A DNA stretch of 64,000 bases. Origin: an uncultured Chloroflexia bacterium. GTDB taxonomy: Bacteria > Chloroflexota > Anaerolineae > CG2-30-64-16. The position numbers and the translations under genes were made by a program. The stretch lies in NCBI GenBank assembly GCA_963774265.1, contig CAVZDU010000003.1:320001-384000 (forward strand), written 5' to 3'. Within the stretch, counting starts at the first letter, position 1; every line of letters begins with the position of its first letter. Positions 5,704 to 33,379 of this stretch are shown one piece after another. Under the pieces are notes generated by a model. That model saw nothing but the letters and a program-made list of their open reading frames with translations, searched no databases and was not told where the DNA came from.

Positions 5704-5729
5704 CTGCTATCGCATCACCCGAGGGACCC

Positions 5730-8700: not shown

Positions 8701-10112
8701 CCGAGATCGTCACGCGATTCGGCCTGGGCACGCTGCTGACGCGTGATGTGGCCTTCGAGAGGAGCCGGGCGCGCAAGTACCTGACCAACGTGGTGCTCCT
8801 CCGGTCGCTTCTGTGGATGATCAGCCTGCCGGTGATGGCGCTGGCGCTGCTCGTTTTCCAGCGATCGCCCACCCCGTTGACGGGCGCTGAGATTCAGGCT
8901 ATTGGCCTGTTCGCCGGGGCGCTTTTCTTCGCGAATATCGCAGACGCGCTATCGTCGGTTTTCATGGCGTTTGAGAAAATGGAGTACCCCGCGGCAAGCG
9001 CCACCGCGGTCACGGTGGCCAAAGTGGCTTTGAGTGGCCTGGTGCTGCTGCCTCCGCTTAACCTTGGATTTGTCGGGCTGGCAGGCGTTGCCGTGCTGAT
9101 GAACGTGGTGCAGGTGATTTGGCTTTGGATCCTGCTGGAGCGCAAGGTGCTGGGGCCGGCAGAAGAGGCGATAAGTGCGGTAAGTGCCCGGCACTTCGAA
9201 AGTGCCGGGCACTTGAACGGGCACTTGAACGGCGCCCGGCGCTCGGGCGGCGTGGACTGGGGGCTCCAGCGGTATATGCTGCGTGAGTCCGGTCCGCTGA
9301 TGCTCAACCATTTGTTGGCGACGGTGTTTTGGCGCATCAGCCAATTGGTATTGCGAGGGGCCATCAACCCAGCGGCGGTAGGCATTTTTTCGGCCGGCAT
9401 TAAGTACATCGATGGGCTGAACGTCATCCCGGCCTACTTCACTGCGGCCATCTTCCCTCTGATGAGCCGCTATGCCCATGCCGGCAACGACTCCCTGGTC
9501 AAGGCATATCGCCTTGCGCTCCAGTTGTTGTTTATGGCCGCGCTGCCGATCGCGGTCTTCTTCACCTTTGCCGCGACCCCGTTGATTCAGATCCTCGGCG
9601 GCGCGGCCTACTTGCCCGATTCCGCTATCGCCCTGCGGGTGATGATCTGGTCCATCCCCATCGGCTTCATCAACTCGGTGACCCAGTACGTGTTGATTGC
9701 GGTGCATAAGCAGCGTTTCCTGACGGGCGCCTTCGTGATCGGCGTCCTCGTCGCGGCCATCAGCAACTGGGTGCTCGTGCCGCGGTATGGCGCGGTGGCG
9801 GCCGCCGCTTTGCTTATCCCTGCGGAATTGGCCCTGTTTTTCCCCTTTGCGTGGGCAGTGCAGCGCTACGTGGCCCCGATGCCGTGGCCTGCGTTGTTGG
9901 GGCGGCCGCTCTTGGCAACGGGTGTGAATCTGGTTATAGTATGGGGCTTAGAACGACTGGGCGTACCGCTGCTCGTTGCCTTGGTTGCCGGCTTCGTCGC
10001 ATACTGTGCGGTACTGTTTGCGCTCCGCGCCTTCAACGGCGAGGAGTTTGCCGTCCTGCGCAACTACGTCAATCGCCGACTTCGCCGGCCCGTGCGCGAA
10101 GCCACCACCTGA
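5730..10112 (+). CDS. YfhO-like GT-C membrane protein fused to a C-terminal Wzx/MOP-type flippase
   Basis: N-terminal YfhO features (LWNP..FTGVPF, AYAFSG, VRGYDS, LGVRY, AFPRAF, GWKAY); from about aa 945 VAKNS..., FGLGTLLTRDVA and PRYGAVAAA of a flippase. Confidence 0.8.
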   Translation: MRSSRRAGAFVTIVALLLLPLLWFAPQALGNKTLLPADNLFQYPPWQSFSDQLGVDVPYNALISDLVLENLQWKSLIVDALAAGNPADILWNPRSFTGVPFFAAGQQSAAYPLSLLFYVMPLWRAYGVFTWLQIGLAAVCMYLFMRSLRVRRIAAVLASIAYAFSGFFIVSVNFTMVIAAAAWLPLLLACIEIVVRKQQENVGRNFLPAPFVALGAAVLATQILAGHVEITYYTLMVAGLFAVWRLAGVWLRLRAWRPVVRIGVWLLIMIGLGMALGGVQILPLVELVQQSFREGSASLQQVRDWAWPSRQIITFLLPDFYGNPTHHAYFDIWQRTWVPVTQNALGQPLSTIDWGVKNYVEGGNYLGLTTLLLAAIGALAGVVSRGDPRGRSPAPELDHCAARPTYTWFFTILAILSLLFAFGTPLYAILYYGLPGYSQLHSAFRWVFPYTLSMAALAGFGLDWLLSQRETRMEEGRRKQEDLPHLPGTAGAGSSLVRFASVSERLPRLLAWLSILAGAGALLLVVLSVLIPSPFIALGERLLNWGFWSDLAQSRGFANGAMFWSYEAMQIVRFGAMALLTGLAILWLMCDRGRLYRGLPHGQALLAALPLVLTLLLDVWLVGRGFNPAVEKKLLEFTPPAIEFLQSKLDPAQPWRLTSFDGPDEKVLNANSAMRYGLEDVRGYDSIIPRQYVAYMRRLHPQGELLYNRIAAIYSQLGDQANYGALDNPLLHLLGVRYVVSTQAIPNDGYELVYDQEVKVYENTQAFPRAFIVPQAMSASDQTEALDKLQQLDPAEVVLIEGLAPERLPPAASPQVREVRFSQRGNREYFIDVNISDRGWLVVTDNYFDGWKAYLRPFGVEGEGVNASGESVEQQLPLYRADGTFRAVYLPQAGQWTVRFVYSPRSVLLGAYLTFLAGVTLVLLLGWWAWRRYYKGEGSEVGTVAKNSAVQVVMSLFNRGIDFAFAMLRLRVLSPEGEGSYVFAITFYLIAEIVTRFGLGTLLTRDVAFERSRARKYLTNVVLLRSLLWMISLPVMALALLVFQRSPTPLTGAEIQAIGLFAGALFFANIADALSSVFMAFEKMEYPAASATAVTVAKVALSGLVLLPPLNLGFVGLAGVAVLMNVVQVIWLWILLERKVLGPAEEAISAVSARHFESAGHLNGHLNGARRSGGVDWGLQRYMLRESGPLMLNHLLATVFWRISQLVLRGAINPAAVGIFSAGIKYIDGLNVIPAYFTAAIFPLMSRYAHAGNDSLVKAYRLALQLLFMAALPIAVFFTFAATPLIQILGGAAYLPDSAIALRVMIWSIPIGFINSVTQYVLIAVHKQRFLTGAFVIGVLVAAISNWVLVPRYGAVAAAALLIPAELALFFPFAWAVQRYVAPMPWPALLGRPLLATGVNLVIVWGLERLGVPLLVALVAGFVAYCAVLFALRAFNGEEFAVLRNYVNRRLRRPVREATT
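6880..6914 (+). repeat. GTAG-type REP-like palindrome inside the YfhO coding sequence
   Basis: GTAGGGGCGACCCTCGCGGTCGGTCCCCCGCCCCT. Confidence 0.6.
9182..9230. repeat. Perfect 15-bp inverted repeat plus a 12-nt tandem duplication inside the flippase domain
   Basis: AAGTGCCCGGCACTT-cga-AAGTGCCGGGCACTT, then gggcacttgaac x2. Confidence 0.85.
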
Positions 10113-10974: not shown

Positions 10975-11061
10975 GTTAGGGCGGGTCTCACCTGCGCTGC
11001 ACTCACGCCCCTTGGGAGGCGCAGGTGTGCACTCGACCGCGCCTGGAGGAGGGTTTCTACG

Positions 11062-13260
11062 ATGCGGATCGGCATTATCACCAGCGGTGGCGACGCACCC
11101 GGCATGAATGCTGCCGTCCGGGCCATCACCCGATGCGCCCTGGACAAAGGAACTGAAGTCGTCGGCATCCATGAGGGCTGGCAGGGAGTGGTCGATGGGG
11201 GCGAGCAGTTCGAGCCGTTCAACTGGCGCAGCGTGGGCGGCATTCTGCAGCTCGGTGGCACGATCCTTGGTACGGCGCGTTGTGAGATCTTCCGTACGGT
11301 GCCTGGACGGCGCCAGGCCGCCCGCAACCTGGTCATGAATGACATCGATGGCATGGTGGTCATCGGCGGCGATGGCTCGCTCACCGGCGCCCTTTTACTG
11401 CAGCAGGAATGGGCCGAGCATGTCCGCGCATTGGCCGCCGAGGGGCTCATTCCAGCGGAGAAGGTCCAGGCTCACCCATCGCTGCGCATCGTCGGCCTGC
11501 CTGGATCCATCGACAACGACCAGTTCGGCACGGATATGAGCATCGGGGCTGACACTGCGCTGAATACGATCGTTGAGGCGGTGGATAAGCTGAAATCGAC
11601 CGCGGACTCCCACCAGCGCACCTTCGTGGTGGAAGTGATGGGCAGGCGTTGCGGTTATCTCGCTTTGATGGGCGCGGTGGCCACGGGTGCGGACTGGTTG
11701 CTGATCCCCGAAGAGGAAATGGATTCGCGCTGGCATTTTCGGATGATTGAAGCATTGAAGACCGGCCGGGAAGCGGGCCGCCGGCATGATGTCATCATCT
11801 TCGCCGAGGGTGCGCGGCACCCGGATGGGCTGCCCATCCGCGCCGACACCATCACCGAAATCTTGAGAAACCGTATGGGCATAGAGGCCCGCGTGACGGT
11901 TCTGGGACATGTACAGCGGGGCGGGTCGCCCAGTGGGTTCGACCGTAACCTGGCATCGCGGCTGGGCGCGGCGGCTGTGGACTACATCATGGGGCCGGAC
12001 GAGACGCCTGTGATGTTGGGGCTGGTTCACAACGAAACCAAGGCGACACCCTTGGATGAAGTGGTCGCTAAGAGCCTCGAGATCAACACCCAGATCGACC
12101 AGGGTAATTTCGACCAGGCGTTGGCCATGCGCGGCCGCAGTTTCCTGGACTCGCTCAGCTTGCTAAAGACGCTGGCACGCGCGCATCCCAAGGCAGAACT
12201 AGCGGCCCGTGGTCGCATCGCCATCATGACAGGGGGACCTGATTCGCCTGGCATGAACGCGATCCTGCGCACAGCGCTCCGCATGGCACGGAATGAGGGC
12301 CAGGATGTCATCGGCATCCGCTATGGTCTCGGCGGACTGGCGCGTGGGGATGTCTGGGACCTGAACTGGATGGACGTTCAGAACTGGATAAATCTGGGCG
12401 GCAGCGAATTGGGAGCGATCCGGCACGAACTAGACGATGCGGAGATCAAGGCGATCGCACAGCAGATCCGCCAATGGGACATCCGCGGGATCATTGCGGT
12501 CGGGGGTCTACAGACATACCAGCAGATCGCGAAACTCGAGGCCGCGCGTGACATCTACGCGGAGCTGCGCATCCCAATGATCTGCGTTCCCGCAACGATC
12601 GGCAACAACCTGCCCGCCACCGAGATCACCGTAGGCGCGGACACCGCGCTAAACAACATCGTCGATGCGGTGGATAAAATCAAGTATACGGCTGGCGCAG
12701 CCCATCGTACCTTCCTCGTGGAGGTCATGGGCCGGGAGAGCGGTTACCTGGCGCTGGCGTCGAGCATCGCGACCGGTGCAGAGATGCAACTGCTCAACGA
12801 GGATGGAATCGATCTGAGAGTCTTGCAGAAGGATATCGAGCAGCTCCGTGAAGGCTTTGCCAGCGGCAAGAAACTGGGGATTGTCATCATCGCAGAGGAT
12901 GCTTCGCCATACTACGACACCGAGTTCGTCCGTCGCATCATGGTGGCGGAGGCGCACGGTCAGTTCGACGTGCGCGAAGCGATCCTGGGGCACCTGCAGC
13001 GCGGGGGCGTGCCGACCGCGTTCGATCGGGTTCAGGGCAGCCGCCTGGGCGCTCATGCCGCCCGCAAGATCATGGATGACGTCGCGGCAGGGCGGGATGA
13101 AGTCAACGTCATCGGGGTTTGGCGCCGCGGTGTCGAGATCACCCCACTTGCCGAGGCGATGAACCAGATGGACTGGGTGCACGATCGTCCCAAGATCCAG
13201 ACCTGGCTTTCATGGCGACCCATGTCGGTGGTGCTGGCGAAGGCGAATCCGGGGATCTAG
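11062..13260 (+). CDS. pfkA: ATP-dependent 6-phosphofructokinase, tandem-duplicated (eukaryotic-type) architecture
   Basis: Two PFK halves: GGDAPGMN/GGDGS/SIDND/GHVQRGG and GGPDSPGMN/TIGNN/GHLQRGG; 732 aa. Confidence 0.93.
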   Translation: MRIGIITSGGDAPGMNAAVRAITRCALDKGTEVVGIHEGWQGVVDGGEQFEPFNWRSVGGILQLGGTILGTARCEIFRTVPGRRQAARNLVMNDIDGMVVIGGDGSLTGALLLQQEWAEHVRALAAEGLIPAEKVQAHPSLRIVGLPGSIDNDQFGTDMSIGADTALNTIVEAVDKLKSTADSHQRTFVVEVMGRRCGYLALMGAVATGADWLLIPEEEMDSRWHFRMIEALKTGREAGRRHDVIIFAEGARHPDGLPIRADTITEILRNRMGIEARVTVLGHVQRGGSPSGFDRNLASRLGAAAVDYIMGPDETPVMLGLVHNETKATPLDEVVAKSLEINTQIDQGNFDQALAMRGRSFLDSLSLLKTLARAHPKAELAARGRIAIMTGGPDSPGMNAILRTALRMARNEGQDVIGIRYGLGGLARGDVWDLNWMDVQNWINLGGSELGAIRHELDDAEIKAIAQQIRQWDIRGIIAVGGLQTYQQIAKLEAARDIYAELRIPMICVPATIGNNLPATEITVGADTALNNIVDAVDKIKYTAGAAHRTFLVEVMGRESGYLALASSIATGAEMQLLNEDGIDLRVLQKDIEQLREGFASGKKLGIVIIAEDASPYYDTEFVRRIMVAEAHGQFDVREAILGHLQRGGVPTAFDRVQGSRLGAHAARKIMDDVAAGRDEVNVIGVWRRGVEITPLAEAMNQMDWVHDRPKIQTWLSWRPMSVVLAKANPGI

Positions 13261-17820: not shown

Positions 17821-18984
17821 ATGACTCACAATCAGCGCGTATTGGCGGCCCTGCGCGATCATCAGCATGACATGGTCGCCGACTTGACCCGTCTCGTCGA
17901 GATGGAATCGCCGACCGATGACAAGCCAGCCCTTGACAGGCTCGCCGAGCACCTTGCCACTCGCCTGCGTCATCTGGGCGCACAGGTAGAGATATCGCCA
18001 CAGGAGCACACGGGCGATCACCTGCGGGCCTGCTGGGGAGGCGACAATGAGGGAGGCGTAGGCGGGTTGCTGTTGCTGTGCCACATGGATACGGTTTGGG
18101 ACCTGGGAACGGTCGCTAAACGGCCAGTCAGCATCCGGGACGGGCTCCTCTACGGACCAGGCGCGTTCGACATGAAGGGCGGCATCGTTATTGCGCTCTG
18201 GGCGATCCGCGCGCTCCGCGGCCTGAATATGATGCCTGCACGGCGGATTACGCTGCTGATCACCTCTGATGAAGAGACAGGGAGCAAGACATCCCGGTCG
18301 ATCATCGAGATGGAGGCTCTCCAGCATGATGCGGTTCTCGTCCTGGAGCCGGCGCAGCCGCCTCATGCCGCACTCAAGACGTGGCGCAAGGGTGTGGGCA
18401 TGTATCAGGTGCGCACGACCGGCGTTTCGGCACACGCGGGCGCGGCCCACGAGGAGGGCGTCAACGCGATTGAAGAACTCGCCCACCAGGTCGTGGCCAT
18501 CCAGGCGTTGACCGACTACGCTGCAGGCACGACGGTCAATGTGGGTGTTGTGGGCGGCGGCACGCGCAGCAACGTGGTGCCGGAGGCCGCGTGGGCCCGA
18601 GTCGACGTGCGGGTGATGGATCAGGCCGAGGCCGAGCGCCTGGATAAGTCCCTGCGCAGCTTGCGGCCACATCTGAAAGGCGCACGCGTGGAGGTGTCCG
18701 GGGGCATCAATCGTCCTCCGATGACCCGAACCCCGGCGGGAGTGTCTCTCTTCGAGAAGGCAGCCGCCATCGCGACCCAGCTGGGGTTCTCGGTGATTGA
18801 GACGGGCACCGGGGGCGGGTCGGACGGCAACTTCACCGCCGCGCTGGGCGTGCCGACGCTGGATGGGCTCGGGGTCGCGGGCGATGGCGGCCATGCACAG
18901 CACGAGCACGTGATCATTAGCTCGTTGCCCGAGCGCGCCGCACTCCTGGCAGGCTTGCTCGATCCTCAGATCGCTCGATCGTAG
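17821..18984 (+). CDS. M20 metallopeptidase (glutamate carboxypeptidase G2-like)
   Basis: CHMDTV, GPGAFDMKGG, SDEETGS, AHAG, GGGSDGN, GGHAQHE. Confidence 0.9.
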   Translation: MTHNQRVLAALRDHQHDMVADLTRLVEMESPTDDKPALDRLAEHLATRLRHLGAQVEISPQEHTGDHLRACWGGDNEGGVGGLLLLCHMDTVWDLGTVAKRPVSIRDGLLYGPGAFDMKGGIVIALWAIRALRGLNMMPARRITLLITSDEETGSKTSRSIIEMEALQHDAVLVLEPAQPPHAALKTWRKGVGMYQVRTTGVSAHAGAAHEEGVNAIEELAHQVVAIQALTDYAAGTTVNVGVVGGGTRSNVVPEAAWARVDVRVMDQAEAERLDKSLRSLRPHLKGARVEVSGGINRPPMTRTPAGVSLFEKAAAIATQLGFSVIETGTGGGSDGNFTAALGVPTLDGLGVAGDGGHAQHEHVIISSLPERAALLAGLLDPQIARS

Positions 18985-19045
18985 AGGATCGACTCACCAC
19001 TCTGAAATTGGCGAGGATAGTACTTTTGTGCTATGATAGCGCGAA

Positions 19046-21361
19046 ATGAGTTCATCAAAAATGCCTGTGCAACTTTCGGACGCGCAAAGCGCCCTCGCCG
19101 CACTACCCACTGACCGCCGCATTTTCCTCGAAGGCATTGCCGGCGCCGGGAAGACGACGGCCGCTGTGGCGCGGTTGGAGCATCTTCTGCTCTCCGGTGT
19201 GCCCGGGAGCGATATCCTCATCGTCCTGCCACAGCGTACGCTTGCCGCACCGTACAACGCACTCCTGCGCCGGCCCAGCACACCTGCGAGCGGGGAGGTT
19301 GCCACGGTCACCATAGGCGGCCTGGGTCAGCGGATGATCGAGCTCTACTGGCCGCTTGTGGCGCGGCAAGCTGGCTTCGCTCACCCCGATCACCCGCCCG
19401 TCTTCCTCACCCTGGAGACCGCACAGTATTTCATGGCCCGGGTCGTGCGGCCGATGCTCGATGCGGGGAATTTCGATGCCGTCCGCATCGACCGTAACCG
19501 TCTCTACAGCCAGATCCTGGACAACCTGAACAAGGCAGCGGTGGTTGGTTTTGATGCGGCGGAGATTGGGCCGCGGCTCAAGGCGGCGTGGCTGGGTGAA
19601 TCCGCGCAGTTCCGGGTCTATGATGAGGCGCAGGAGGCAGCAGACCGTTTCCGCGCCACCTGCCTGGCCCACAATCTGCTGGATTTCTCGCTCCAATACG
19701 AGATGTTTTCCCGACATCTCTGGCCGCTGCGCCCTTGTCGGGAGTACCTTCTGACGCGCTACCGGCACCTGATCATCGACAACACCGAGGAAGACACGCC
19801 AGTGAGCCACGATATCCTGGCTGAATGGCTGCCGCACACGACCTCGGCGCTGGTCGTGTATGACGAGGGAGGTGGATATCGCCGGTTTCTGGGAGCGGAC
19901 CCGGGGAGCGGCTACCGGCTGAAGGCGTTGTGCCAGGAGCGCGTCTATTTCGATCGCTCCTTTGTGACCTCGCCGGCTGTACAGGCGCTGGGCGTGGCTA
20001 TGCGCCGCGCACTGCGACCCAAGCCGAATGCCGGTGAGGTTGCACCGGTCATGGGGCGGCGGACGTCGCCTGTGCTCGCCCAGGAACTGGATTTCGATGC
20101 ACCTGCGCGGGAGGGCGCGACCCAAGCGAGCGGCCCAGCCCCGGCGATCATGGACGCGTTGGAGTATGAAGGCCGTCGCTACCATCACCAGATGATCGAC
20201 TGGGTTGCCGACCGTATTGCCGTGTTGGTGCATGACGAAGGTGTTTCGCCGGGCGAGATCGCAATCGTCGCGCCGTTCGTCAGCGGTGGCCTGCGTTTCG
20301 CGCTCGAAAACCGCCTGGCTGACCACGGGGTTCCAGTGCGGTCGCACCGGCCCTCGCGCGCGCTGCGTGAGGAGCCGACCACCCTGTGCCTGCTCACCTG
20401 GGCTGCGTTGTGCCACCCGGGCTGGCGCATTCGCCCTGCGGCCTTCGATGTCAGCCAGGCGCTGATGCACACGATCGCGGACATGGACCTGGTGCGCGCA
20501 CAACTTCTCGCCGACATCGCCTATCGCACGCGCGATGGCATCCCCACCTTGACCTCCTTCGCAGAGATCGAGCCCGCGATGCAGGAACGCATTACTTTCC
20601 TGTTGGGCGGGCGGTACGAGGGGCTCAGGACGTGGATCAACGCGCACACGGTTTCTGTGGATCAAACCTGGGCCACGCCGGAGCGTTCGGCTATGACGCG
20701 TGGGGGCAAGTCCCGGCGGCGCGCGGAACTGGATCACTTCTTGTCGCGCCTTTTCGGCGAGCTACTTTCTCAGCCGGGCTATGGTTTCCACGAGAGTTAT
20801 GATGCAGGTGAGTTGACCGCCAAGGTGATCGAATCCGCGCGCAAGTTCCGCCAGGTGATCACGGCATCGGGCGATGCCGTAGCATCGCACGATGCCGCAG
20901 CATCGCACGATCGGTCTGACCGCCCGATGGGGCAGGAGTACATCGAGCTGGTGCGCGACGGTGTGGTGGCTGCACAATACGTGCGCAGTTGGCGCCGCCA
21001 GGCCGAAGATGCGGTTCTGATTGCGCCCGCGTACACCTTCTTGATGGGCAACGTCGCGGTCGATCATCAGTTTTGGCTGGATGTGGGCGCCACCGGATGG
21101 TGGGAGCGGCTGAACCAGCCGCTGACGCATCCCTACATCCTCAGTCGCCGGTGGGAGCAGGGCAACCAGTGGACCGACCTGGAGGAATATTTCGCGCGGC
21201 AAGAGGCGATGGCCGAACTGGTCATCGGCCTGGTGCATCGCTGTCGCAAGCAGGTCCATCTGGCTTTAAGCGAGCTCAGCGAAGCCGGCAGTGACCAGCG
21301 CGGCGCACTGCTGCGGACAGTACAGCATGTGCTGCGCAGCGAACGTTCTCTTCACAACTAA
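19046..21361 (+). CDS. Degenerate UvrD/SF1-like helicase-fold protein with no nuclease domain
   Basis: Walker A GIAGAGKT; motif II altered to IIDNTEED; EIAIVAP; C-terminal motif VI-like GLVHRCRKQVHL. Confidence 0.7.
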   Translation: MSSSKMPVQLSDAQSALAALPTDRRIFLEGIAGAGKTTAAVARLEHLLLSGVPGSDILIVLPQRTLAAPYNALLRRPSTPASGEVATVTIGGLGQRMIELYWPLVARQAGFAHPDHPPVFLTLETAQYFMARVVRPMLDAGNFDAVRIDRNRLYSQILDNLNKAAVVGFDAAEIGPRLKAAWLGESAQFRVYDEAQEAADRFRATCLAHNLLDFSLQYEMFSRHLWPLRPCREYLLTRYRHLIIDNTEEDTPVSHDILAEWLPHTTSALVVYDEGGGYRRFLGADPGSGYRLKALCQERVYFDRSFVTSPAVQALGVAMRRALRPKPNAGEVAPVMGRRTSPVLAQELDFDAPAREGATQASGPAPAIMDALEYEGRRYHHQMIDWVADRIAVLVHDEGVSPGEIAIVAPFVSGGLRFALENRLADHGVPVRSHRPSRALREEPTTLCLLTWAALCHPGWRIRPAAFDVSQALMHTIADMDLVRAQLLADIAYRTRDGIPTLTSFAEIEPAMQERITFLLGGRYEGLRTWINAHTVSVDQTWATPERSAMTRGGKSRRRAELDHFLSRLFGELLSQPGYGFHESYDAGELTAKVIESARKFRQVITASGDAVASHDAAASHDRSDRPMGQEYIELVRDGVVAAQYVRSWRRQAEDAVLIAPAYTFLMGNVAVDHQFWLDVGATGWWERLNQPLTHPYILSRRWEQGNQWTDLEEYFARQEAMAELVIGLVHRCRKQVHLALSELSEAGSDQRGALLRTVQHVLRSERSLHN

Positions 21362-21379
21362 GGCACGAAGAAGCTGACC

Positions 21380-23621
21380 ATGCCATTTGATCCGAGACCC
21401 ACACAAGCGGCTGTCCTCGCCTATCCTGGCGGGATGATGGGCGTGTCAGCCGCACCGGGGAGCGGTAAGACACATGTGCTCTCGGCGCTCGCGGCGCGGC
21501 TTGTTGCGGACGGCGGCCTGGCGGATGACCAGGAAGTGCTCATCGTCACCCTGGTCAATTCTGCTGTGGATAACTTCTCCACCCGGGTGGACGAGTTCGT
21601 CAAAGAGCGTGGGCTGCTGCCACGCGTCGGCTACCGGGTGCGGACTCTGCACGGACTGGCGCACGACATCGTGAGGGAGCGCCCCGGACTGGTCAGCCTG
21701 GCGGAGGATTTCCGCATCGCGGACGAGCAGGAGACGCAGCAGATACTTCAATCTGCAGTGTCAGCATGGGTTTCAGCCAACCCGGACGCAGCGGAGCCGT
21801 TCATCGATCCGGGGCTCGCAACTGATGAGCGGCGTGTCGGGTGGGTCAAGAGCGACCAGTGGCCCACGCTGGTGGCGGATATTGCGGGCAGCTTCATCCG
21901 CCTGGCAAAGGACTTGCAGCTTGCGCCTGGCGTGTTGGCCGAACGGCTGGACCTGCTGCCTCATGCTGCACCCCTCATGGAGATGGGCGTCGCCATCTAT
22001 GCGGACTACGAGCACAGCCTCGAGGCTCGCCGCGGCGCTCGACTACGATGACCTGATTCGTCTCGCGCTGCAGGCCTTGCGGACCGATCCTGATTACCTG
22101 CAACGGCTGCGCTACCGGTGGCCCTACGTGTTGGAGGATGAGGCGCAAGACTCCAGCCGGCTTCAGGAGGAAATCCTGAGACTGCTGGCCGGGCCGGGCG
22201 GCAACTGGGTTCGGGTGGGGGATCCGAACCAGGCGATCTTCGAGACCTTCACCACCGCCAACCCGCGCTATCTGCGTGATTTTCTCGAAGAAGAGGGCGT
22301 GGTCGCGCTCACGCTGCCCACTTCCGGGCGGTCGACGCGCAGCATCATCCAACTGGCCAATCTTCTCGTCAAATGGTCGCGCGCAGAACACCCTATGGCG
22401 GGCCTGCGCGATGCACTCGCGCCAACGTACATTGAGCCGGCGCCCCCGGGCGATCCGCAGCCCAACCCGGAGGACGATCCGAGCGCGGTCCACCTGCCCC
22501 GGGGAAAATACTCACCCGCGGATGAGCTGGAAGCAATTGTCCGGTCGCTGGCGCGGTGGCTTCCGGAGAACAAGGACCGGACCGCGGCGATCCTGGTGCC
22601 GAGCAACCAGCGCGGTGAGGCGGTAGTGAGTGCGCTTAAGGGCCGTGGCATCGAGTATGTGGAGCTTTTGCGCAGCACTCGCGAGACCCGTAACCATGCC
22701 GGCGCGCTGGGCAATATCCTGGCTGCCCTGGCAGAGCCGGCGAACGCATCCAAACTGGCTACGGCATACCGCGTGTGGCGGCGCCGCGATCGCGAGGACC
22801 CCGAGGCGCGGGAGCGCATGGCGCGACTATCGAAAAGCATCGAGCGTTGCCGAAACGTGGAGGAGTTCCTGTGGCCACGGCCTGAGTCGGAAGACCTGGG
22901 CTGTATCGAGCTTCCCGACGCGGACCCGATCTATGACGAGCAGTTGCGCGCCTTCCGGTCCCTGGCGCGGCGTTGGCAGGGCGCGGCCACGCTGCCCATC
23001 GACCAGTTGCTCATTACCATCGGGCAGGATCTGTTCGATAAGCCTGGCGAGCTGGCGTTGACGCACAAGCTGGCGGCCCTGTTGCGACAGGCCGCGGCAG
23101 AGCATCCAGGCTGGCGTCTGCCCGAGCTGATCGACGAGTTGGCCGCCATCGCACGCAATGAGCGCAAGTTCCTGGGCTTCTCGGAGGATGACAGCGGCTT
23201 CAATCCGGACGCGCACAGAGGCAAAGTCACAGTTGTCACGGCGCACAAGGCGAAAGGGCTGGAATGGGATCGCGTCTATCTGACCTCTGTGAACGCGTAC
23301 GACTTCCCATCGGCCCAGGCCGGCGACACATTCATTTCCGAGCGTTGGTATATCCGGGACCGATTGAACTTGCAGGCCGAGGCATTGGCCCAACTACAGG
23401 CGTTAGCCGTCGAAGCGCCGCTGCCTCCCCTGGGACGCCCGACTGAGGTTGCTCGTCTTGACTACGCGGCGGAGCGGTTGCGCCTGCTGTACGTCGGCAT
23501 CACGCGCGCGCGCCGGGAACTGTTCCTCACGTGGAATACCGGCCGCAGCGGCAAGGTGACGCCTGCCGTCCCACTGCTGGCGCTGCAGGGCGCGTGGGAG
23601 CGATTGAAGATTGAAGACTGA
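21380..23621 (+). CDS. UvrD/REP-family ATP-dependent DNA helicase; frameshift near 22030
   Basis: AAPGSGKT, LDYDDL, EDEAQD, VGDPNQAIF, SGRS, TAHKAKGLEWD, ERLRLLYVGITRAR. Confidence 0.9.
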
Positions 23622-23627
23622 AGATGG
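23602..23627 (+). repeat. GATTGAA heptamer tandem repeat at the helicase/nuclease junction
   Basis: gattgaa gattgaa gactgaa gatgg; contains the upstream TGA and the downstream ATG. Confidence 0.7.
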
Positions 23628-24500
23628 CTTTACCACCTGATTTCCAGTTCAGCCAGGCGAGCCTGCAGGACTATGTCGAATGTCCCCGCCGGTTCCAGTT
23701 GCGCTACTTGTTGCAGCTTCAATGGCCCGCGCCCGAGGCCGAGCCGGCCGAAGAGCACGAGCAGCACATGCAGGACGGCGAGACATTCCACCGGTTGGTC
23801 CACCAACACCGCTTGGGTATCCCGGTGGAGTACCTGCAGCCAGGTGGTGGCGACGAGGTGGCAGGCGAAGCGGGCCCGGTGGTCTCGTCCTTGCTGGCCG
23901 AATGGTGGGCCGCCTATCTCGCTGCCCCGCCCCCAGACCTGCCGCGGATGCAATTTCCTGAGCTGGCGCTGTCGGTTCCCCTGGGCGAGCACAGGCTGGT
24001 TGCGAAATTCGATCTCGTGGCGATCGAAGCTGGACGCCGCGCCGTGATCGTGGACTGGAAGACATCGCGCCGCCGCGTGTCGGCCAGCCTCCTGGCGGCG
24101 CGGCTGCAGACCCGCGTGTATCGCTATGTGCTGGCGCAGGCCGGCGCGCACCTTTAACGGTGGCGCAGCGATCGCTCCTGAGCAAATCCGCATGCTGTAC
24201 TGGTTTGCGGTTGACCCCGAACACCCCGAGATCCTGCTGTACGATGCCAACCAGCAGGGTGCAGATGGGCGCTATCTGTCGGGCCTTGCTGCGAGCATCG
24301 CCGCCTCCGGGGATGATGATTTTCAGAAGACGGACGATGTGCGGCGCTGTCGCTTTTGCCCCTACCGCTCGCTGTGCAACCGGGGCGTTGAAGCAGGTCT
24401 GCTCAGTGAAGATGGCGCAGAAGATGTGGGCGAACCCGAGCCAGAATTTGATTGGGAGCGGGGTTTGGATTTCGAGCAGATCGCGGAGATCGCGTTCTAA
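23624..24500 (+). CDS. Stand-alone RecB/AddB-like PD-(D/E)XK nuclease with a 4-Cys Fe-S staple; frameshift near 24153
   Basis: FSQASL..CPRRF, GETFH, KFDLV, VDWKT, QTRVY, CRFCPYRSLC. Confidence 0.88.
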
Positions 24501-24512
24501 GAGGAGATATGC

Positions 24513-26899
24513 GTGCGGCCGTGGGTTGAGCCATCGCCTGTGATCGTTCCGCCAGAACTGCGTGCGGCAGCGGGGGGACATCCGTTGGTCGCGGAGGCGT
24601 TGGCGCGGCGCGGGGTGGTGAACGCCGCTGCAGCGCGGGCCTTCCTCGACCCTGCGCAGTACACTCCCTCATCCCCCGACACTCTACCGGGTATGGCGCG
24701 CGCGGTCGCGCGCATCGGCCGCGGCCTCAAGACGGGCGAGTCGATCTGCGTGTGGGGCGACTTCGATGTTGACGGCCAGACGTCGACAGCCCTACTCGTC
24801 TCGACCCTGCGCGATCTGGGCGGCCGCGTGACCTATCACGTCCCCCTGCGGGAGACCGAAGGACATGGCATCCATCTGCCGGTCCTGGAGCAGGCCATCG
24901 CCAACGGCGCGCGGCTGATCGTCACCTGCGACACCGGGATCTCCGCACACGATGCGGTCGCGTTCGCGCGCTCGCAGCGCGTAGATGTCGTCATCACCGA
25001 CCATCACGATCTGCCTGACCGGTTGCCCGACGCCGCAGCCATCCTCAACCCGAAGCTGTTGACCGCCCCTATGGGACGCGACTCATCGCCCCTGGCTGAT
25101 CTCCCCGGTGTGGGTGTGGCGTACAAACTGGCCGAAGCGCTGTATGAGCGAGCCGGCCGTGCGGGTGAAGTGGAGAAACACGCGGACCTGGCCGCACTGG
25201 GCATCATCGCCGATCTCGCGCTGCTGCGCGGGACACGCGTCACCTGGCGCAAGTCGGCTTGGCCAGCCTACGAAACGGGCGGCGGATTGGCGTGCAGGCG
25301 CTTTTCGAGTCCACGGAGTTGGACCCGGGCAACCTCGGGGAGGAGCACATCGGTTTCGTGCTGGCCCCGCGGCTTAACGCGGCGGGCCGGCTGGCCGACG
25401 CGGGCCCTTGCGTGGAGTTGTTGACGACTTCCGACCTGACTCAGGCGCGCATCATCGCAGCGGATCTGGAAGCGCTGAACGCGCGGCGTAAGTTCCTGAC
25501 GGACAGAGTGACGCAAGAAGCGGAGGCCCAGCTCAAGGCCGACCGGTCGCTGTTGGATCACGCTGCGCTCGTGCTCGCCAGCGCTTATTGGCCCGCAGGT
25601 ATCATTGGGATTGTCGCCAGCCGGCTGGTGGAGCGGTATGGCCGGCCGGTCGCGTTGGTGTCCACCGCGCAAGGCGGGCCGGGTCGTGGATCGGCGCGCT
25701 CTGCGGAGGGGGTTGACATATCGTCAGCCATCACCGCATGCCAGGGGCTCTTGTTGGGCTTCGGCGGTCATCCGATGGCTGCGGGCTTCACTATCGAACC
25801 TCATCGCATTGGCGCCTTCCGCGCGGCGTTGTCGGCCCGCGTTGTAGCCCAACTGGCTGATATCCCCGAACCTGAGGGTCTCGCCATCGATGCTGTGCTC
25901 CCCCTGAGTGAGCTTTCGTTGGAACTGGTCGACGACCTTTCGCGGCTGGGGCCGTTCGGGCCCGGGAACCCTGCACTGATGCTGTGTGCGCCACGGCTCG
26001 AGGTTCGCGCCAGTCGATTGGTGGGCCGGCAGGAGGAACATCGCATCCTGACCCTGGCCGATGAAACCGGCTTCGCGCGGCAGGTGGTGTGGTGGAACGG
26101 GGGCAGCGAGCAAGCGCCGCAAGGGCTTTTTGATCTGGCCTACACGGCCCGCGCCAGCACCTACCGGGGGGAACGCAGCGTCCAGGTCGAGTATCTCGCA
26201 GCGCGGCCCTCCCCCGGCGCGCCGGTGGTCGAAATCGCGGCGATGGATATCGAGGTGCTGGATTTTCGGCGCGCGCGGGACGCTGAGGTTCACCTGGCCG
26301 AACTTCTCTCGGGGGGGGACGTCGCGGTCTTCGGTGAAGGAGAGATGGATACCGCGGCTCGGGGTTCTAATCGCCAGTTGCTCCTGCCCGCGGCCACCCT
26401 TGCGTTTTGGACCGCGCCCTCCAGCCCCAGCGAGGTGCGGGCCGCGCTGGCCGCAGTCCGGCCTGAACGTGTCGCGCTGTTTGCCATGGAGCTCGGCCTG
26501 GATCGGCCGGATGCATTCCTCCGTCGATTGGCCGGGCTTGTGAAGCATGCGCTGAAGGCTCGGGGCGGCCGCGCGGGAGTGGCGGACCTGGCTGCCGCGA
26601 CGGCCCAGCGTGAGCTGGTCGTACATCTCGGATTGAAGTGGCTGGTGGCGCAGGGGAACCTGACGATTATCGAGGAGGGTGACGGCGCGGTTCTGCTCGC
26701 CTGGGGAAGGGGTCAGCCTGCGCCCGAGCCTGAGCGCACCCTGGCAGCAGCCCGGCTCTCCGCTGCACTCCGGGAGACGGCCGCGTTCCGCGCGTATTTC
26801 CGGACGGCCGACAAGGACGCGCTGCTGCGCGGGTACCAGGGAAGCAGTCCTGTGGACCGTGGACCCTCCCTTCTATTCGGGCCGCAGCCATCCCCATGA
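24513..26899 (+). CDS. recJ: Single-stranded DNA exonuclease RecJ with a C-terminal extension; frameshift near 25230
   Basis: GDFDVDG, TCDTG, TDHH, PRLNAAGRL, GSARS, GGHPMAAG, PFGPGNP. Confidence 0.92.
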
Positions 26900-26936
26900 T
26901 AAAATAGAGCCAGCGTAATCCATCAAGGAGGATGGC

Positions 26937-28241
26937 ATGCATCGCAGCATTGGGATTCGTCGTGAGGATAAAAGCCACTGGGAGCGCCGTGTACCCCTGA
27001 CGCCGGCCATTGCCCGTCAACTCCGGGAGCTACACGGCATCCAGACTTACGTTCAACCTTCCCCTATCCGTGCTTTCGGAGAGACCGAGTTTGAGGAGCA
27101 CGGCGCGGTCATCCAGGAAGACCTAGCGCATTGCGCTATCGTTTTTGCGGTCAAGGAGATCCCTGCCTCCCTTTTCCGCCCCGGCGGTGCGTACATGTTC
27201 TTCGCCCACGTGATCAAGGGGCAGCCGTATAACATGCCCATGTTGCGCCGGCTGATGGAGCTCAAGTGCACCCTCATCGACTATGAGAAGGTGATCGACG
27301 ACCAGGGCCGCCGCCTGATCTTCTTTGGGCGTTACGCCGGACTGGCAGGCATGATCGAGACGCTCCATGCGCTGGGCCAGCGTCTGGCGGGGGATGGCGT
27401 GGCCAATCCCTTTCAGGAGTTAGGCCACGCACATCAGTATCATGATCTGGGCGCAGCCAAAGAAGCGGTGGCGCGTGTAGGCGAGGCGATCCGGCGTGAA
27501 GGCATCCCGGAGCAGATCGCACCCCTGACGATCGGCGTGACCGGCTACGGAAACGTCTCGCGCGGCGCATGGGAGATCCTCAACCTCCTGCCGATGGAGG
27601 TCATCGAGCCGGACATGCTCCCCCATCTTGTGAGCGGTTTTGCTGGCTCGCGCCACGCGGTCTATGGGACCACCTTCAAAGAGCAGCACATTGTTGAGCC
27701 GCTGGATGGCGAGTTTGACTGCCTGCGCTACTACGAGTGCCCGGACAACTACCGTCCGATTTTTGAGCGTTACCTGCCCTACCTGACCGTGCTGGTCAAC
27801 GGGATCTACTGGGATGCACGCTACCCCAGGTTGGTCACCAGGGACGCGTTGCGCGGCCTATGGGAAGGCGGGCAAACGAAGCTGAAGGTCATCGGCGACA
27901 TCTCTTGCGATATCGAGGGTTCGATCGAAGTGACGCTCAAGACCACTCAGCCGGATGTGCCGTGTTTCGTGGTCAACCCGCTCACCGGCGAGGCCAGGGA
28001 TGGCCTCGAGGGCGAGGGTGTGGCGGTCATGGCCGTGGATATCCTGCCCAGCGAGTTGCCGCGTGACGCGTCGGAGGAGTTCAGCCGCGTGCTGGGGGAT
28101 TACATCCCCGCGATTGCTGCGGCGGATTTCTCAGCACCGTTTGAGGACCTCGACCTCCCCGCGCCGATCAAGCGCGCCGTCATCGTCCACCGTGGAGAAC
28201 TGACACCCGATTACGCGCATATCCGGCGATATCTGGAATAA
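26937..28241 (+). CDS. Lysine-ketoglutarate reductase (AASS N-terminal-like, AlaDH/PNT fold)
   Basis: RREDKSHWERRVPLTP, FFAHVIKGQPYNM, IDYE, DISCDIEGSIE, MAVDILPSELP. Confidence 0.85.
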   Translation: MHRSIGIRREDKSHWERRVPLTPAIARQLRELHGIQTYVQPSPIRAFGETEFEEHGAVIQEDLAHCAIVFAVKEIPASLFRPGGAYMFFAHVIKGQPYNMPMLRRLMELKCTLIDYEKVIDDQGRRLIFFGRYAGLAGMIETLHALGQRLAGDGVANPFQELGHAHQYHDLGAAKEAVARVGEAIRREGIPEQIAPLTIGVTGYGNVSRGAWEILNLLPMEVIEPDMLPHLVSGFAGSRHAVYGTTFKEQHIVEPLDGEFDCLRYYECPDNYRPIFERYLPYLTVLVNGIYWDARYPRLVTRDALRGLWEGGQTKLKVIGDISCDIEGSIEVTLKTTQPDVPCFVVNPLTGEARDGLEGEGVAVMAVDILPSELPRDASEEFSRVLGDYIPAIAAADFSAPFEDLDLPAPIKRAVIVHRGELTPDYAHIRRYLE

Positions 28242-30727: not shown

Positions 30728-33376
30728 TCAAGGACAAGATGAATTGTGCAGCAGCCTCAACCTGCGTGTGTACTCGTCCACTTCAGCGGCGCGACCGTAG
30801 AGCCGCGCATCGTCAATGGCGCGCTGATGCAACTCGAGCGCGGCGCTGTGATCGCCTTGCTGGCACGCCAGTTCACCCAACCGGAAAAGATACAGGGCTC
30901 GTGAGATGGGCGCTACGAGATCCGCAGCACGTTTGTAGTGGGCGACGGCCGTCGGCAGGTCGCCCTCCTGGCGCGCGAGCAGGCCCAGGTAGCCGTATGC
31001 CAGGCCCGCACTCTTGGCGATGCTGGCATCGCCGATGCTGGCATCGCCGATGCCGGTTTCACCCGCCTCATACTGCTCGATCACGTTCTGCAGTTCGAGG
31101 TGTGCGCGTTCAAAATCCGCCGTCTGGCCGTACAGACCGCTCGTCAGGTAAACGTAGCCCAGCCCCGTATGGGCCGTGCTGACCTCACGCGCGCTGAGCC
31201 GACCGACCGGGCCAGCCAGCACAGCCTGGTATGCGGCGCGGGCCTCGTCCAGCCGCGTGCGATCCAGGCGACGCTGTCCTTCATCCCCCCGCTCGGCTAC
31301 GGAGAGCATCGCCAGGCAGCCCGCCCTGCCCAGTTGCGCCCGTATGTACTCAGGCTGAATGGCGAGTGCGCGGTCGTAGGCCGCAAGGGCCTCCTGCAGG
31401 GCGCCGGCCTGGCCCGTGATAGATGCCTGGCGGACCAGCGCGTGGCCCAGCAGCAGATAGGCGAACTCTTTACCGTCTACGGCCGGCCAGTGCGTATCGC
31501 CCTCGGCCTGCCGGATATAAGTCAGCGCCTTTTCCGGGTTGTCAGCGGAGAGGTAGGACAGACCGACGACCAGTTCCGCCAGCACATTCATGCGGACGAG
31601 ATGTGGCGGGTGCTCGATAACAAGCAGTGATTCGGGGTCGAACGGAAGTGTGATGGGCAGGGAGCCACCGAGCGCATAGGGGCCTGCCAGCTCATCCTCC
31701 TGGTCGGAGCCGGTGTATCCGACGTGGAAGGCCAACGCCAGGCGACCGGGCGCCGTCCCTGCGGGATCGACCTTCTGCGTATCGGTGATCACGCCGTAGA
31801 TCAGGATGTCTGCGGAGATTCGCTCGGCATAGGTCGCGGCCGCCGAGGCGCGTTCTTCTGCGGTGCGGCCGGGCAGGGCGCACGCGAGCGTAGGCCGGCG
31901 AATCTCATACGGCACGTCGAGATCAAGATCGGCCAGTGCAGGTCCGAAGCGCTGGTACAGAAACTCCGCAACCGCGTGGCCCGCGTCGCTTCGGATGGCC
32001 GCCCCATTCTCGTCCACAACGGTGAGGGGTTGGAAAGCGATGGTCAGCTTGTTGCCGTCCATCGGGTTGGGATAGAGGCAGCGGATGACCGGCGCGCGGT
32101 CGCGCAACATGCGAGGGAAACCGGGCAGGTCGAGGATGCCAGACGTCGTCCCGACGATGGCCAGGACGGTTGCGATTATTCCGGTGATCACCTGCCAGGT
32201 ACGCGGCAGCAGGGGGGCGCGCTCCAGCGACGGCAGCGCCAGGCCGCCCGTGTGCCCCATGTAGAGCGCAGGGAGCTCCGGTGCGACCTCCGCGCCATGC
32301 AGCCGGCGAACGAGCTTGCGGCCGTAGGCCAGGCTGATCTCAATGGGTTCGCCTGCGGCCAGGGCGCGATAGAACTCACGCGAGAAGTCAACCACCGTGC
32401 GATCGAATTGGGGTGCGTGCATGCCGACGACCGCAGGAACGCCTCGCCGTGTCGCTTCCTCCGCCACATGACGGATCGCGTCGGGCGCCGCGTCCGGCTG
32501 GCACAGGGTGACGGCCAGAACGGTGACCGAATCCGTGATGGTGAGTTCGGCCAGCTCAGCGGCGGGCAGGGTATCCCAGGCGCCGGACGCACCGGGCAGC
32601 AGAAAGTGGCCATCATCCGCGGCTTGACCGAAGAAGTGCACGACATGGTAGCCGCACCCGGCCGACTCCGCTGCTGCCAGGTGTTCGTGGAGCGCGTAAG
32701 GTGTTGTATTTTCGAGCAGCGTGACGTGATAGCGCCGTCCCTTGAACACTCGCCGCCAGGCTTCGCCCACCGCGACCGCTTCCACATCACCCGTCAGCAG
32801 GCGCAGCGTGTCGTGCGCGGACAACGGCCGGGTGAGGTCCGCCGCGGGGTGGTCGGGCGTCGGTACGGTCGGGCGTCGGTAGGGGCCGACCTGCGTGTCG
32901 GCCCCCCGACCTGCGTGTCGGCCCCCCGGCGCGAACGCGGTGACAGCCAGCACGCGCAGAGTTCCCTTGCCCGGTGGACGGTGCGGTGTGGCAGATGATG
33001 GCGTGTGGCGAACCAGGGGCGCGTTGGATGCGGCGGTCAGGGAACGCGACTCGCCCGGCGCGTCGAAGATCAGCTCCCAGGGCAGGCTATCGAGCGGCTC
33101 GGGAAGCGGCTGTGCCAGGACAATGCGCAGCCGCTCGTCTGCGCCGAGCCATTCGATGGCTGTCTTGTGGAGACGCAGCACATCGCCGGTAAAGAGGGCC
33201 GAGAAAAGATGAGCGCCGATATGACGGGGATCCGTCTGCCGGTCGACGAGGCACCGGCGCAACACGTCACCGGGGATGGAGGAGTGTGCCTGCAGCCCCT
33301 GGAACTCAGCCGTGAGAGGGTACGCGCCATCCACCGGCTGATCGATCCGGATAAGGAATGGGCGATAGGTGGCCAT
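30728..33376 (-). CDS. CHAT (caspase HetF-like) domain + TM helix + TPR protein
   Basis: LPWELI, LRVLAV, YHVVHFFGQA, GVPAVVGM, FSREFYRAL; TM WQVITGIIATVLAIVG; TPR-like helices (AYDRALAIQP). Confidence 0.8.
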   Translation of the reverse strand: MATYRPFLIRIDQPVDGAYPLTAEFQGLQAHSSIPGDVLRRCLVDRQTDPRHIGAHLFSALFTGDVLRLHKTAIEWLGADERLRIVLAQPLPEPLDSLPWELIFDAPGESRSLTAASNAPLVRHTPSSATPHRPPGKGTLRVLAVTAFAPGGRHAGRGADTQVGPYRRPTVPTPDHPAADLTRPLSAHDTLRLLTGDVEAVAVGEAWRRVFKGRRYHVTLLENTTPYALHEHLAAAESAGCGYHVVHFFGQAADDGHFLLPGASGAWDTLPAAELAELTITDSVTVLAVTLCQPDAAPDAIRHVAEEATRRGVPAVVGMHAPQFDRTVVDFSREFYRALAAGEPIEISLAYGRKLVRRLHGAEVAPELPALYMGHTGGLALPSLERAPLLPRTWQVITGIIATVLAIVGTTSGILDLPGFPRMLRDRAPVIRCLYPNPMDGNKLTIAFQPLTVVDENGAAIRSDAGHAVAEFLYQRFGPALADLDLDVPYEIRRPTLACALPGRTAEERASAAATYAERISADILIYGVITDTQKVDPAGTAPGRLALAFHVGYTGSDQEDELAGPYALGGSLPITLPFDPESLLVIEHPPHLVRMNVLAELVVGLSYLSADNPEKALTYIRQAEGDTHWPAVDGKEFAYLLLGHALVRQASITGQAGALQEALAAYDRALAIQPEYIRAQLGRAGCLAMLSVAERGDEGQRRLDRTRLDEARAAYQAVLAGPVGRLSAREVSTAHTGLGYVYLTSGLYGQTADFERAHLELQNVIEQYEAGETGIGDASIGDASIAKSAGLAYGYLGLLARQEGDLPTAVAHYKRAADLVAPISRALYLFRLGELACQQGDHSAALELHQRAIDDARLYGRAAEVDEYTRRLRLLHNSSCP
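32879..32926 (+). repeat. GTAG REP plus a partial tandem copy inside the CHAT coding sequence
   Basis: GTAGGGGCCGACCTGCGTGTCGGCCCC followed by a second CCGACCTGCGTGTCGGCCCC. Confidence 0.85.
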
Positions 33377-33379
33377 GAG

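Follow-up and report, generated by a model that had tools for sequence, protein, structure and literature searches.

A candidate DNA-end-processing operon of Chloroflexota that joins a degenerate and an intact UvrD-type helicase to a free nuclease and a dedicated RecJ paralog

Background

The helicase–nuclease machines RecBCD, AddAB and AdnAB initiate recombinational repair and, in addition, degrade linear DNA of foreign origin. In all characterized forms known to us, the nucleases are fused to the motors and both strands are cut. A 64,000-nucleotide stretch of the genome of an uncultured Chloroflexia bacterium (GTDB lineage Anaerolineae, CG2-30-64-16; assembly GCA_963774265.1, contig CAVZDU010000003.1, positions 320,001 to 384,000 of the forward strand), hereafter the window, raises the question whether the same kind of task can be divided among separate proteins. 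At positions 19046–26899 it carries four genes, here designated g1 to g4, that encode a degenerate helicase-like protein, a UvrD-type helicase, a nuclease with an iron-sulfur (Fe-S) cysteine pattern and a RecJ protein. A first-pass annotation, made from the sequence alone, had read them as a deconstructed analogue of AddAB or AdnAB with a free nuclease, had assigned to RecJ the resection of the 5' strand, and had expected the module to occur where AddAB is absent. Three of the four genes are split into two frames in the assembly, which raises the further question whether the locus is functional at all.

Results

The four genes lie on the + strand, in the order g1-g2-g3-g4, with gaps of 18, 2 and 12 nucleotides, as claimed at the outset and borne out by the coordinates of the open reading frames (ORFs); the motifs on which the initial reading was built (Walker A and DNTEED in g1, the helicase motifs in g2, the 1+3 cysteine pattern in g3) and the RecJ gene were all found in the sequence. 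The first gene, g1 (19046–21361), is an intact, single open frame of 771 amino acids (aa) for a degenerate UvrD-fold protein with no nuclease domain, and g2 (21380–23621) encodes a UvrD-type helicase of superfamily 1A (SF1A), of ~745 aa, in which motifs I, II and VI are intact and a nuclease domain is likewise absent. The product of g3 (23624–24500) is a Cas4-family PD-(D/E)XK nuclease of ~290 aa with the Fe-S pattern and the motifs D..DxK and QxxxY, and that of g4 (24513–26899) is a long RecJ paralog of ~780 aa, in which Pfam recognizes the DHH, DHHA1 and RecJ_OB domains and which bears an unassigned C-terminal extension of ~220 aa.

The same arrangement recurs in relatives. A pattern search gave 597 matches, 571 of which encode a relative; the best 80 loci were kept, 79 without the query's own genome, and their record titles name metagenome-assembled genomes (MAGs) of Chloroflexota from Anaerolineae, Anaerolineales, Caldilineales and Thermoflexales. 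Synteny was counted in the 57 of these 79 loci in which g1 is followed by at least 6.5 kb of sequence: all are from Anaerolineae, and they show g1-g2-g3-g4 in 30 cases, g1-g2-g3 in 11, g1-g2 in 13, g1 alone in two and g1 with g3 and g4 in one, with g1 and g2 together in 54/57. The frames typically overlap or nearly abut, the median gaps being 14.5, -4 and 2 nucleotides (n = 66, 46 and 33 related loci, respectively). We also surveyed 41 related genomes, 28 with g1 (the carriers) and 13 without; among 14 loci from carrier genomes, eight were whole with each gene in one frame, three were cut by a contig end, one had g1-g2 and two had g1 only. The recurrence of this order in the relatives, every gene being an unbroken frame in the eight whole loci, makes a chance arrangement of the four genes very improbable. 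Synteny is thus strongly conserved in Anaerolineae, and the helicase–helicase–nuclease trio, which the first-pass annotation had placed in Chloroflexota and cyanobacteria, is indeed common in Chloroflexota, both among the related loci and among the matches of the g1 family.

In the window itself, each of g2, g3 and g4 is interrupted by one single-base indel that leaves it in two frames. DNA alignment with two same-genus genomes places an extra base in g2 at ~22030 and a missing base in g4 at ~25231, and the shift in g3 is an extra T in a CTTT at 24153, all on the + strand; both halves of each gene align end to end with intact same-genus orthologues, and zero residues are lost. The genome, assembled into 10 contigs of 5.5 Mb in total and estimated from marker genes to be only 84% complete, contains many such breaks. 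A comparison with 234 long ORFs, taken from 20 contigs of a short-contig genome of the same genus, gave 69 orthologue pairs at an identity of at least 60% and a coverage of at least 80%. Of these pairs 16 are frameshifted, and the 28 shifts in 81.7 kb (0.34 per kb) often fall in runs of neighboring genes. Examples of such clusters are C6:365298-369259 and C1:1236418-1242809, and some genes are broken three to four times. Moreover, an independent contig from run X2 (222 nucleotides; one contig, depth 2.5) equals window positions 24111–24333 except for one base fewer at 24153, which supports an intact g3; no near-identical contig among the independent contigs covers sites 22030 and 25231. Since frameshifts are found genome-wide and the X2 contig lacks the extra base, the three indels are most likely assembly errors, directly observed as such for g3 only; the organism itself therefore probably has a functional operon. 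Any split-looking gene of this assembly should be suspected of indel error.

The g1 protein contains a Walker A motif, GIAGAGKTT, and, in the region of motif II, the sequence IIDNTEED. Its Pfam match to UvrD-helicase is sub-threshold (20.5 bits, cut-off 23) and it has no NCBIfam match. Residues G30, G33, G35, K36, D245, N246, E248 and E249 are invariant in 15/15 aligned sequences, and across the 79 related loci Walker A reads GK[TS] in 74 and motif II reads DN[VILTA]EE in 71. The predicted model (pLDDT 71, pTM 0.70) has a complete SF1A helicase fold with no extra nuclease domain; it superposes on UvrD with Z 28.2 (452 residues aligned, root-mean-square deviation (rmsd) 3.5), on Rep and PcrA with Z 27.6, on AdnB with Z 23.1 (~600 residues), on AdnA with Z 20.5 (432 residues), and on AddA and AddB with Z 20.5 and 19.7. 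The early description of g1 as a helicase-fold protein therefore stands, in the form of a full UvrD/Rep/PcrA-type fold in the predicted model. Judged from its position and from the EDEAQD of g2, the Asn of DNTEED probably occupies the place of the catalytic Glu of UvrD. A sequence-only search of the PDB with g1 returned nothing useful, and profile-versus-single-sequence comparison of g1 or g3 with AddA and AddB of the relatives, a weak comparison, gave probabilities of 6–68%.

The g1 family is large, with 5488 clusters at E <=1e-5 among 8000 candidates scored and 612 at E <=1e-30 among representatives at 50% identity. Among the matches listed, source names are nearly always "hypothetical protein" and otherwise a generic helicase or ATPase label. 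Ten representatives that were looked up belong to Chloroflexota and Clostridiales, with one Acidimicrobiales name; one lower-ranked representative is a Clostridiales MAG, and no cyanobacterial names occur among the best 120 or 150 rows of the family. One representative, P0369 (1419 aa), aligns its residues 1005–1413 with the C-terminal half of the g1 profile (positions 325–720), behind an N-terminal part of ~1000 residues of unassigned content.

In g2, the motifs APGSGKTH, EDEAQD and VGITRAR correspond to motifs I, II and VI, and Pfam finds UvrD-helicase and UvrD_C, which the intact orthologue matches at 137 and 69 bits, well over the cut-off, in keeping with the first reading of g2 as a UvrD helicase. 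Against the NCBIfam equivalogs for uvrD, pcrA and rep it scores at most ~80 bits, with cut-offs above 900, and because these scores lie so far below the cut-offs g2 is best described as an SF1A UvrD-like helicase, probably outside the orthologous groups of UvrD, PcrA and Rep.

The nuclease, g3, combines a single N-terminal Cys (YVECPRRF), the active-site motif DWKT and the cluster CRFCPYRSLC, and matches Pfam PDDEXK_1 (PF12705) at 71.3 bits in the window and 90.2 bits in an intact orthologue. Residues C20, C235, C238, C244, D123, D137-x-K139 and Q155xxxY159 are invariant in 18/18 sequences, a pattern that predicts a 1+3 Cys Fe-S cluster. Against the CRISPR cas4 equivalog TIGR00372 it scores 17.6 bits, far under the cut-off of 65, and on this account we classify it as a solo Cas4-family nuclease and not as CRISPR Cas4. 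In Foldseek, the top match of the predicted model (pLDDT 81) is ACE1 (E 1e-6), one of the cyanobacterial Argonaute-associated Cas4 enzymes; the best superposition is on the nuclease domain of AdnA (TMq 0.62, rmsd 4.3), and Exo5, Cas4, Dna2 and AddB follow after these two. The sequence-only PDB search gave weak matches, to ACE1 (E 2e-4) and AdnB (E 0.07). What had been called a stand-alone RecB-type nuclease with an Fe-S Cys pattern can accordingly be placed in the Cas4 family, with the AdnA nuclease as its closest superposition. The last 30 residues are disordered in the model, and window positions 24380–24500 encode the C-terminus with a flexible acidic stretch; the terminal peptide [LI]DFEQ[IV]AE[IV][EA][FY] is present in 39/40 related loci. 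The tail of SSB, acidic and aromatic-ended, binds RecJ and other repair proteins, and by analogy the g3 tail resembles a docking tail.

Two kinds of RecJ are distinguished in these genomes. Intact operon orthologues of g4 score 446–498 bits against the RecJ model TIGR00644 (cut-off 396.9), and the two halves of g4 in the window score 208.3 and 243.8 bits. The same genome has a housekeeping recJ on another contig (C10:67263-68924, - strand) with 497.9 bits, above both g4 halves together, in an open frame of 696 aa by search and 678 aa from the first start codon. A RecJ with such a shorter frame (~530–725 aa by search frame lengths) occurs in 40/41 genomes. The second, operon-type RecJ (open frame 762–954 aa where whole, some copies being split or cut by a contig end) occurs in 25/28 g1-positive genomes and in 1/13 g1-negative ones, and in each of the three carriers that lack it g1 lies at a contig end. 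The long RecJ is kept in genomes G027, G032 and G033, where it is not beside g1; in G033 it adjoins g3. In a maximum-likelihood tree of 26 rows, one of which (G036) is a wrong-strand ORF whose long branch is to be ignored, the 14 RecJs of the housekeeping kind group together in one clade (87/96), outside which the 11 long ones fall, among them the Salinibacter copy described below. By these sequence comparisons g4 is a dedicated paralog and not the housekeeping RecJ, and the idea that RecJ belongs to the module is strengthened by a paralog of its own that is co-inherited with g1. A search for longer, possibly fused relatives, which covered g3, had a single match, P0239 (1081 aa), a g3-like nuclease joined to RecJ; the junction looks like read-through or loss of the g3 stop just before the recJ start, and the protein is either a genuine fusion or an artifact.

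When plasmid records were searched by tblastn, the whole cassette turned up in the same order on plasmid pSR56 of Salinibacter ruber M8 (Rhodothermota), where the genes are annotated as a hypothetical protein of 717 aa, an ATP-dependent helicase of 772 aa, a PD-(D/E)XK nuclease of 294 aa and a RecJ of 785 aa, with all diagnostic motifs kept; the search returned Salinibacter plus a weak Ilyobacter match only. Among the matches listed, the closest non-Salinibacter relatives of its g1 are from Chloroflexota, at ~46% identity. Since the pSR56 cassette is complete and its nearest g1 relatives are from Chloroflexota, the sequences fit a transfer of the whole cassette as a block. Upstream of it lie genes for a SocA-type antitoxin and XRE regulators. 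About 3.5 kb downstream is a very large DEAD/DEAH box helicase gene (record positions 21452–25393; in locus L131, from 21401–22085 on).

How the cassette relates to the known machines was judged by domain models and by comparison with described structures. ADDB_N (PF21445) was found in 15/41 genomes, namely in 12/28 with g1 and 3/13 without, and the expected anti-correlation with AddAB thus fails. A canonical addB-addA pair was found in same-genus genomes, and that of genome G006 consists of a protein of 1074 aa (ADDB_N and PDDEXK_1) and one of 1164 aa (UvrD-helicase and PDDEXK_1), with addB and addA as the best NCBIfam matches. In the window's own genome, in an assembly that is 84% complete, PDDEXK_1 matches g3 only, ADDB_N was not found and neither was a match to RecC (Exonuc_V_gamma, PF04257), and AddA and AddB of three relatives retrieved only unrelated helicases at 25–35% identity. 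The presence of addAB in most carriers had been named beforehand as a finding that would speak against the module as a replacement for AddAB: the co-occurrence weakens that idea, yet the pair is present in under half of the carriers, and in others, several of them 97–99% complete, the module is the only helicase–nuclease seen. With AddB in 12/28 carriers, the module is therefore no simple AddAB replacement.

None of the known systems compared here accommodates the four genes as a set. Neither g1 nor its orthologue matched ADDB_N, which the true AddB of G006 matches at 60.8 bits and g1 of G040 at 20.5, below the cut-off; with no ADDB_N domain and no NCBIfam match, g1 as AddB by sequence was ruled out. 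Membership in AddAB was rejected, as g1 and g2 lack a C-terminal PDDEXK_1 and the sole nuclease is the separate g3; so was membership in AdnAB, which has two motor–nuclease chains versus three separate genes with a single nuclease here, and in RecBCD, there being, in the 84% complete assembly, no PF04257 and PF12705 only at g3, with no fused RecB nuclease. Gabija (GajA-GajB) was likewise rejected, g2 having only generic GajB similarity (142 bits) and none of the four proteins matching GajA. A PADLOC run on the four proteins reported generic GajB and Cas4 similarity only.

The closest parallel is AdnAB (PDB 6PPU, 9NP6), in which an active UvrD-like motor is paired with a nucleotide-binding, motor-like partner and an Fe-S PD-(D/E)XK nuclease acts on the 5' strand, and whose fold the g1 and g3 models share. 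Passages of PMC13000450 describe the AdnA Fe-S nuclease as taking the 5' strand and place bound nucleotide in the motor-like domain of AdnA. Unlike the cassette, AdnAB consists of two polypeptides, each a motor–nuclease fusion, whereas the cassette encodes three separate proteins, has no 3'-strand nuclease and adds a RecJ paralog; sequence similarity is marginal (g3 profile versus AdnB, E 0.07). AddAB of the Bacillus subtilis type (PDB 3U44, 4CEJ) shares with the cassette an active SF1A helicase with an inactive, Walker A-bearing partner, an Fe-S "staple" nuclease with 1+3 Cys, and the position of the inactive subunit's gene in front, but ADDB_N is missing from g1 and the AddA nuclease domain from g2, the nuclease is free, and a true addB-addA pair coexists in 12/28 carriers. 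As far as predicted models can tell, AdnAB is the best match to the fold data; membership does not follow from a common fold. The proposed deconstructed AddAB/AdnAB analogue consequently holds in its folds, its free Fe-S nuclease and its synteny, and not in the exclusion of AddAB or in the sequence identity of g1 with AddB.

A literature search found no paper describing this four-gene cassette. The nearest account is that of Hudaiberdiev et al. 2017 (PMC5704561), passages of which describe operons of unfused UvrD and Cas4-like genes, mostly in Clostridiales, as "jointly involved" in repair, and note solo Cas4 in many Chloroflexi. These operons resemble the cassette in setting a UvrD-type helicase beside a Cas4-family nuclease, in a non-defense context and with a repair role proposed; they differ in that RecJ is absent from the main text and that the passages available mention no degenerate helicase-like partner. 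One g1 homologue, as noted, comes from a Clostridiales MAG. The cassette is a real, undescribed variant related to the known end-processing helicase–nucleases.

Regulatory signals around the operon were also surveyed. A consensus scan predicts a promoter-like site before g1, TTGGCG and TATGAT spaced by 18 nucleotides with a TG before the -10 element (19008–19037, + strand), the only + strand site of its kind in 18700–27300. Its spacer contains an imperfect palindrome, AGTACTTTTGTGCT (19019–19032, + strand), two positions off GAAC-N4-GTTC and with four matches in the genome. Upstream of lexA and recA, the LexA box of this organism is present as exact GAAC-N4-GTTC. In the relatives, an exact box precedes g1 in 1/74 loci, and a box with at most one mismatch in 17/74 versus 5/74 in a coding control. 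Membership of the operon in the SOS (LexA) regulon was rejected for lack of a box before g1. A count of exact-arm palindromes in 75 upstream regions revealed no shared motif, with at most 4/75 for any.

The neighbors of the operon in the window are genes for peptidases and amino-acid dehydrogenases. Elsewhere in the window, a 1471-aa frame (5697–10109, + strand) joins a YfhO-like membrane region to a polysaccharide-biosynthesis (flippase-like) region, perhaps as an unusual fusion, perhaps because an indel has merged two genes; a 761-aa double-length phosphofructokinase (PFK) with two PFK stretches (627 bits) is encoded at 10975–13257 (+ strand), an 883-aa CHAT-domain protein with TPR repeats at 30731–33379 (- strand), and a DDE_3 transposase with HTH domains, from an IS630-like element, at 37121–38152 (- strand).

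Discussion

We propose, with a probability of roughly 0.55, that the four genes make up a single operon whose products act as a multi-protein machine for DNA-end processing, akin to AdnAB taken apart. In such a machine, g2 would be the ATP-driven motor, moving 3' to 5' on the 3' strand, and g1 a nucleotide-binding, probably hydrolysis-impaired partner in the role of the AdnA motor-like domain, AddB or RecC; g3 would be the Fe-S nuclease of the 5' strand, and g4 would further digest the 5'-ended single strand. With no second nuclease to act on the 3' strand, the machine would generate a 3' tail independently of any Chi-type signal, and RecFOR would then load RecA; RecO is present. That the proteins bind one another, which strand each acts on, and that g1 does not hydrolyze ATP is what we infer from these features.

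Several observations weigh against this proposal. The description of g1 motif II as catalytically dead is a reading by position and by the motifs of UvrD; pairwise comparison of g1 with g2 detects no similarity, and neither Pfam ADDB_N nor the NCBIfam models specific to AddB match g1. AddB co-occurs in 12/28 carriers, and g3 and g4 are out of reach of g1-g2 in 13/57 loci. The split between long and short RecJ is only moderately supported (68/75; one change; 66% of bootstrap trees). In the window, no LexA box with at most one mismatch lies upstream of g1, and of the three frameshift sites the independent contig covered one (24153), at depth 2.5.

That the operon is here a decaying pseudogene cluster and its three frameshifts real is highly improbable. 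Three indels within 5.5 kb would suit decay, as would the fact that most other genes of the window are whole by Pfam coverage, but 16/69 genes are frameshifted genome-wide, in clusters, and completeness is only 84% although there are just 10 contigs; the breaks here are single-base indels with no further decay, g1 is intact, and the insertion in g3 is missing from an independent contig that is otherwise identical. More deserving of attention, and still quite unlikely in our judgment, is that the genes are co-transcribed in a common repair regulon and act separately, with no stable complex: a UvrD paralog, a solo Cas4-type nuclease, a second RecJ, and g1 as an accessory or regulatory ATP-binding protein. 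The 13/57 loci with g3 and g4 apart from g1-g2 point in this direction, as do the four genes' location on different contigs in G027, G032 and G033 and the wording of the passages of PMC5704561, which call UvrD and Cas4-like operons only "jointly involved" in repair. Separate action sits less well with the retention of the long RecJ in 25/28 carriers, even when unlinked, with the overlapping or near-abutting frames, which suggest translational coupling, with the apparent movement of the four genes as one block to another phylum, and with a degenerate helicase fold conserved in 612 representative clusters, as is typical of a structural subunit.

The remaining alternative, which we regard as unlikely, concerns what the machine is for: its main role may be the restriction of incoming DNA (plasmids, transforming DNA, phage ends) and not the repair of the chromosome, free ends being degraded as by RecBCD or AddAB and perhaps supplied as guides where Argonaute is present. 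On the Salinibacter plasmid, the cassette stands beside a toxin–antitoxin gene, XRE regulators and the large DEAD/DEAH helicase. In Synechococcus elongatus PCC 7942, the passages available of Taton et al. 2023 (PMC10653904) report that loss of ago, cas4, uvrD, recJcy, Synpcc7942_0992 or rpoD2 raises the maintenance of RSF1010 as well as natural transformation. Four of these genes, unlinked, match the cassette in size and class and share the anti-plasmid phenotype with ago: cas4 (Synpcc7942_2273; 255 aa, COG2887) would be the counterpart of g3, uvrD (2515; 755 aa, fitness 2.39) of g2, recJcy (0517; 775 aa, a recJ paralog, fitness 2.24) of g4, and Synpcc7942_0992 (665 aa, COG0210, fitness 2.26) of g1, the last three with almost the same fitness value. 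In those passages, uvrD and recJcy appear as extra paralogs beside PcrA and RecJ. A cyanobacterial cluster in the Atlas resembles g1 (score 0.98), and cyanobacteria mostly lack RecBCD and AddAB (PMC12094033). On the other side, the S. elongatus genes are likened to g1–g4 by size and class only, the neighbors in the window are ordinary metabolic genes and form no defense island, and the PADLOC similarity is generic. A Piwi domain was found in 1/41 relatives (G006:C143:1604-2434, - strand, a 734-aa frame), by a model that is insensitive, having also missed the S. elongatus control. Restriction and repair are, besides, not exclusive roles, as RecBCD has both.

Returning to the proposed end-processing machine, the S. 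elongatus set is like the cassette in that the same four protein classes, of similar sizes, share one phenotype, and unlike it in that the genes are unlinked and the phenotype is one of plasmid maintenance and transformation, with Argonaute, and not of repair. Homology of these genes with g1–g4, matched as they are by size and class, is a lead. From it follows a broader proposal, tentative and on balance doubtful: that the cassette represents, in linked form, a widespread, Chi-independent, 5'-strand-specific four-protein machine, of which the cyanobacterial uvrD, 0992, cas4 and recJcy would be the unlinked counterparts.

Conclusions

The initial reading of the locus was right in architecture and wrong in expecting the module to exclude AddAB. 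New here are the frameshift diagnosis, the profile of the RecJ paralog, the co-occurrence with AddAB, the negative LexA result and the S. elongatus lead. A machine with a free nuclease and a RecJ of its own, lacking a nuclease for the 3' strand, would be mechanistically different from the known ones, yielding a 3' tail without Chi control, and a cultured carrier exists in Salinibacter ruber M8 with pSR56; if the S. elongatus homology is true, transposon phenotypes already exist. Should the linked and unlinked sets prove to be one machine, it would be a long-sought stand-in for RecBCD and AddAB where these are absent and a second pathway beside AddAB where it is present; the acidic, aromatic-ended tail of g3 would tether RecJ or a motor in the manner of SSB, and the same machine would both resect breaks and destroy incoming DNA.

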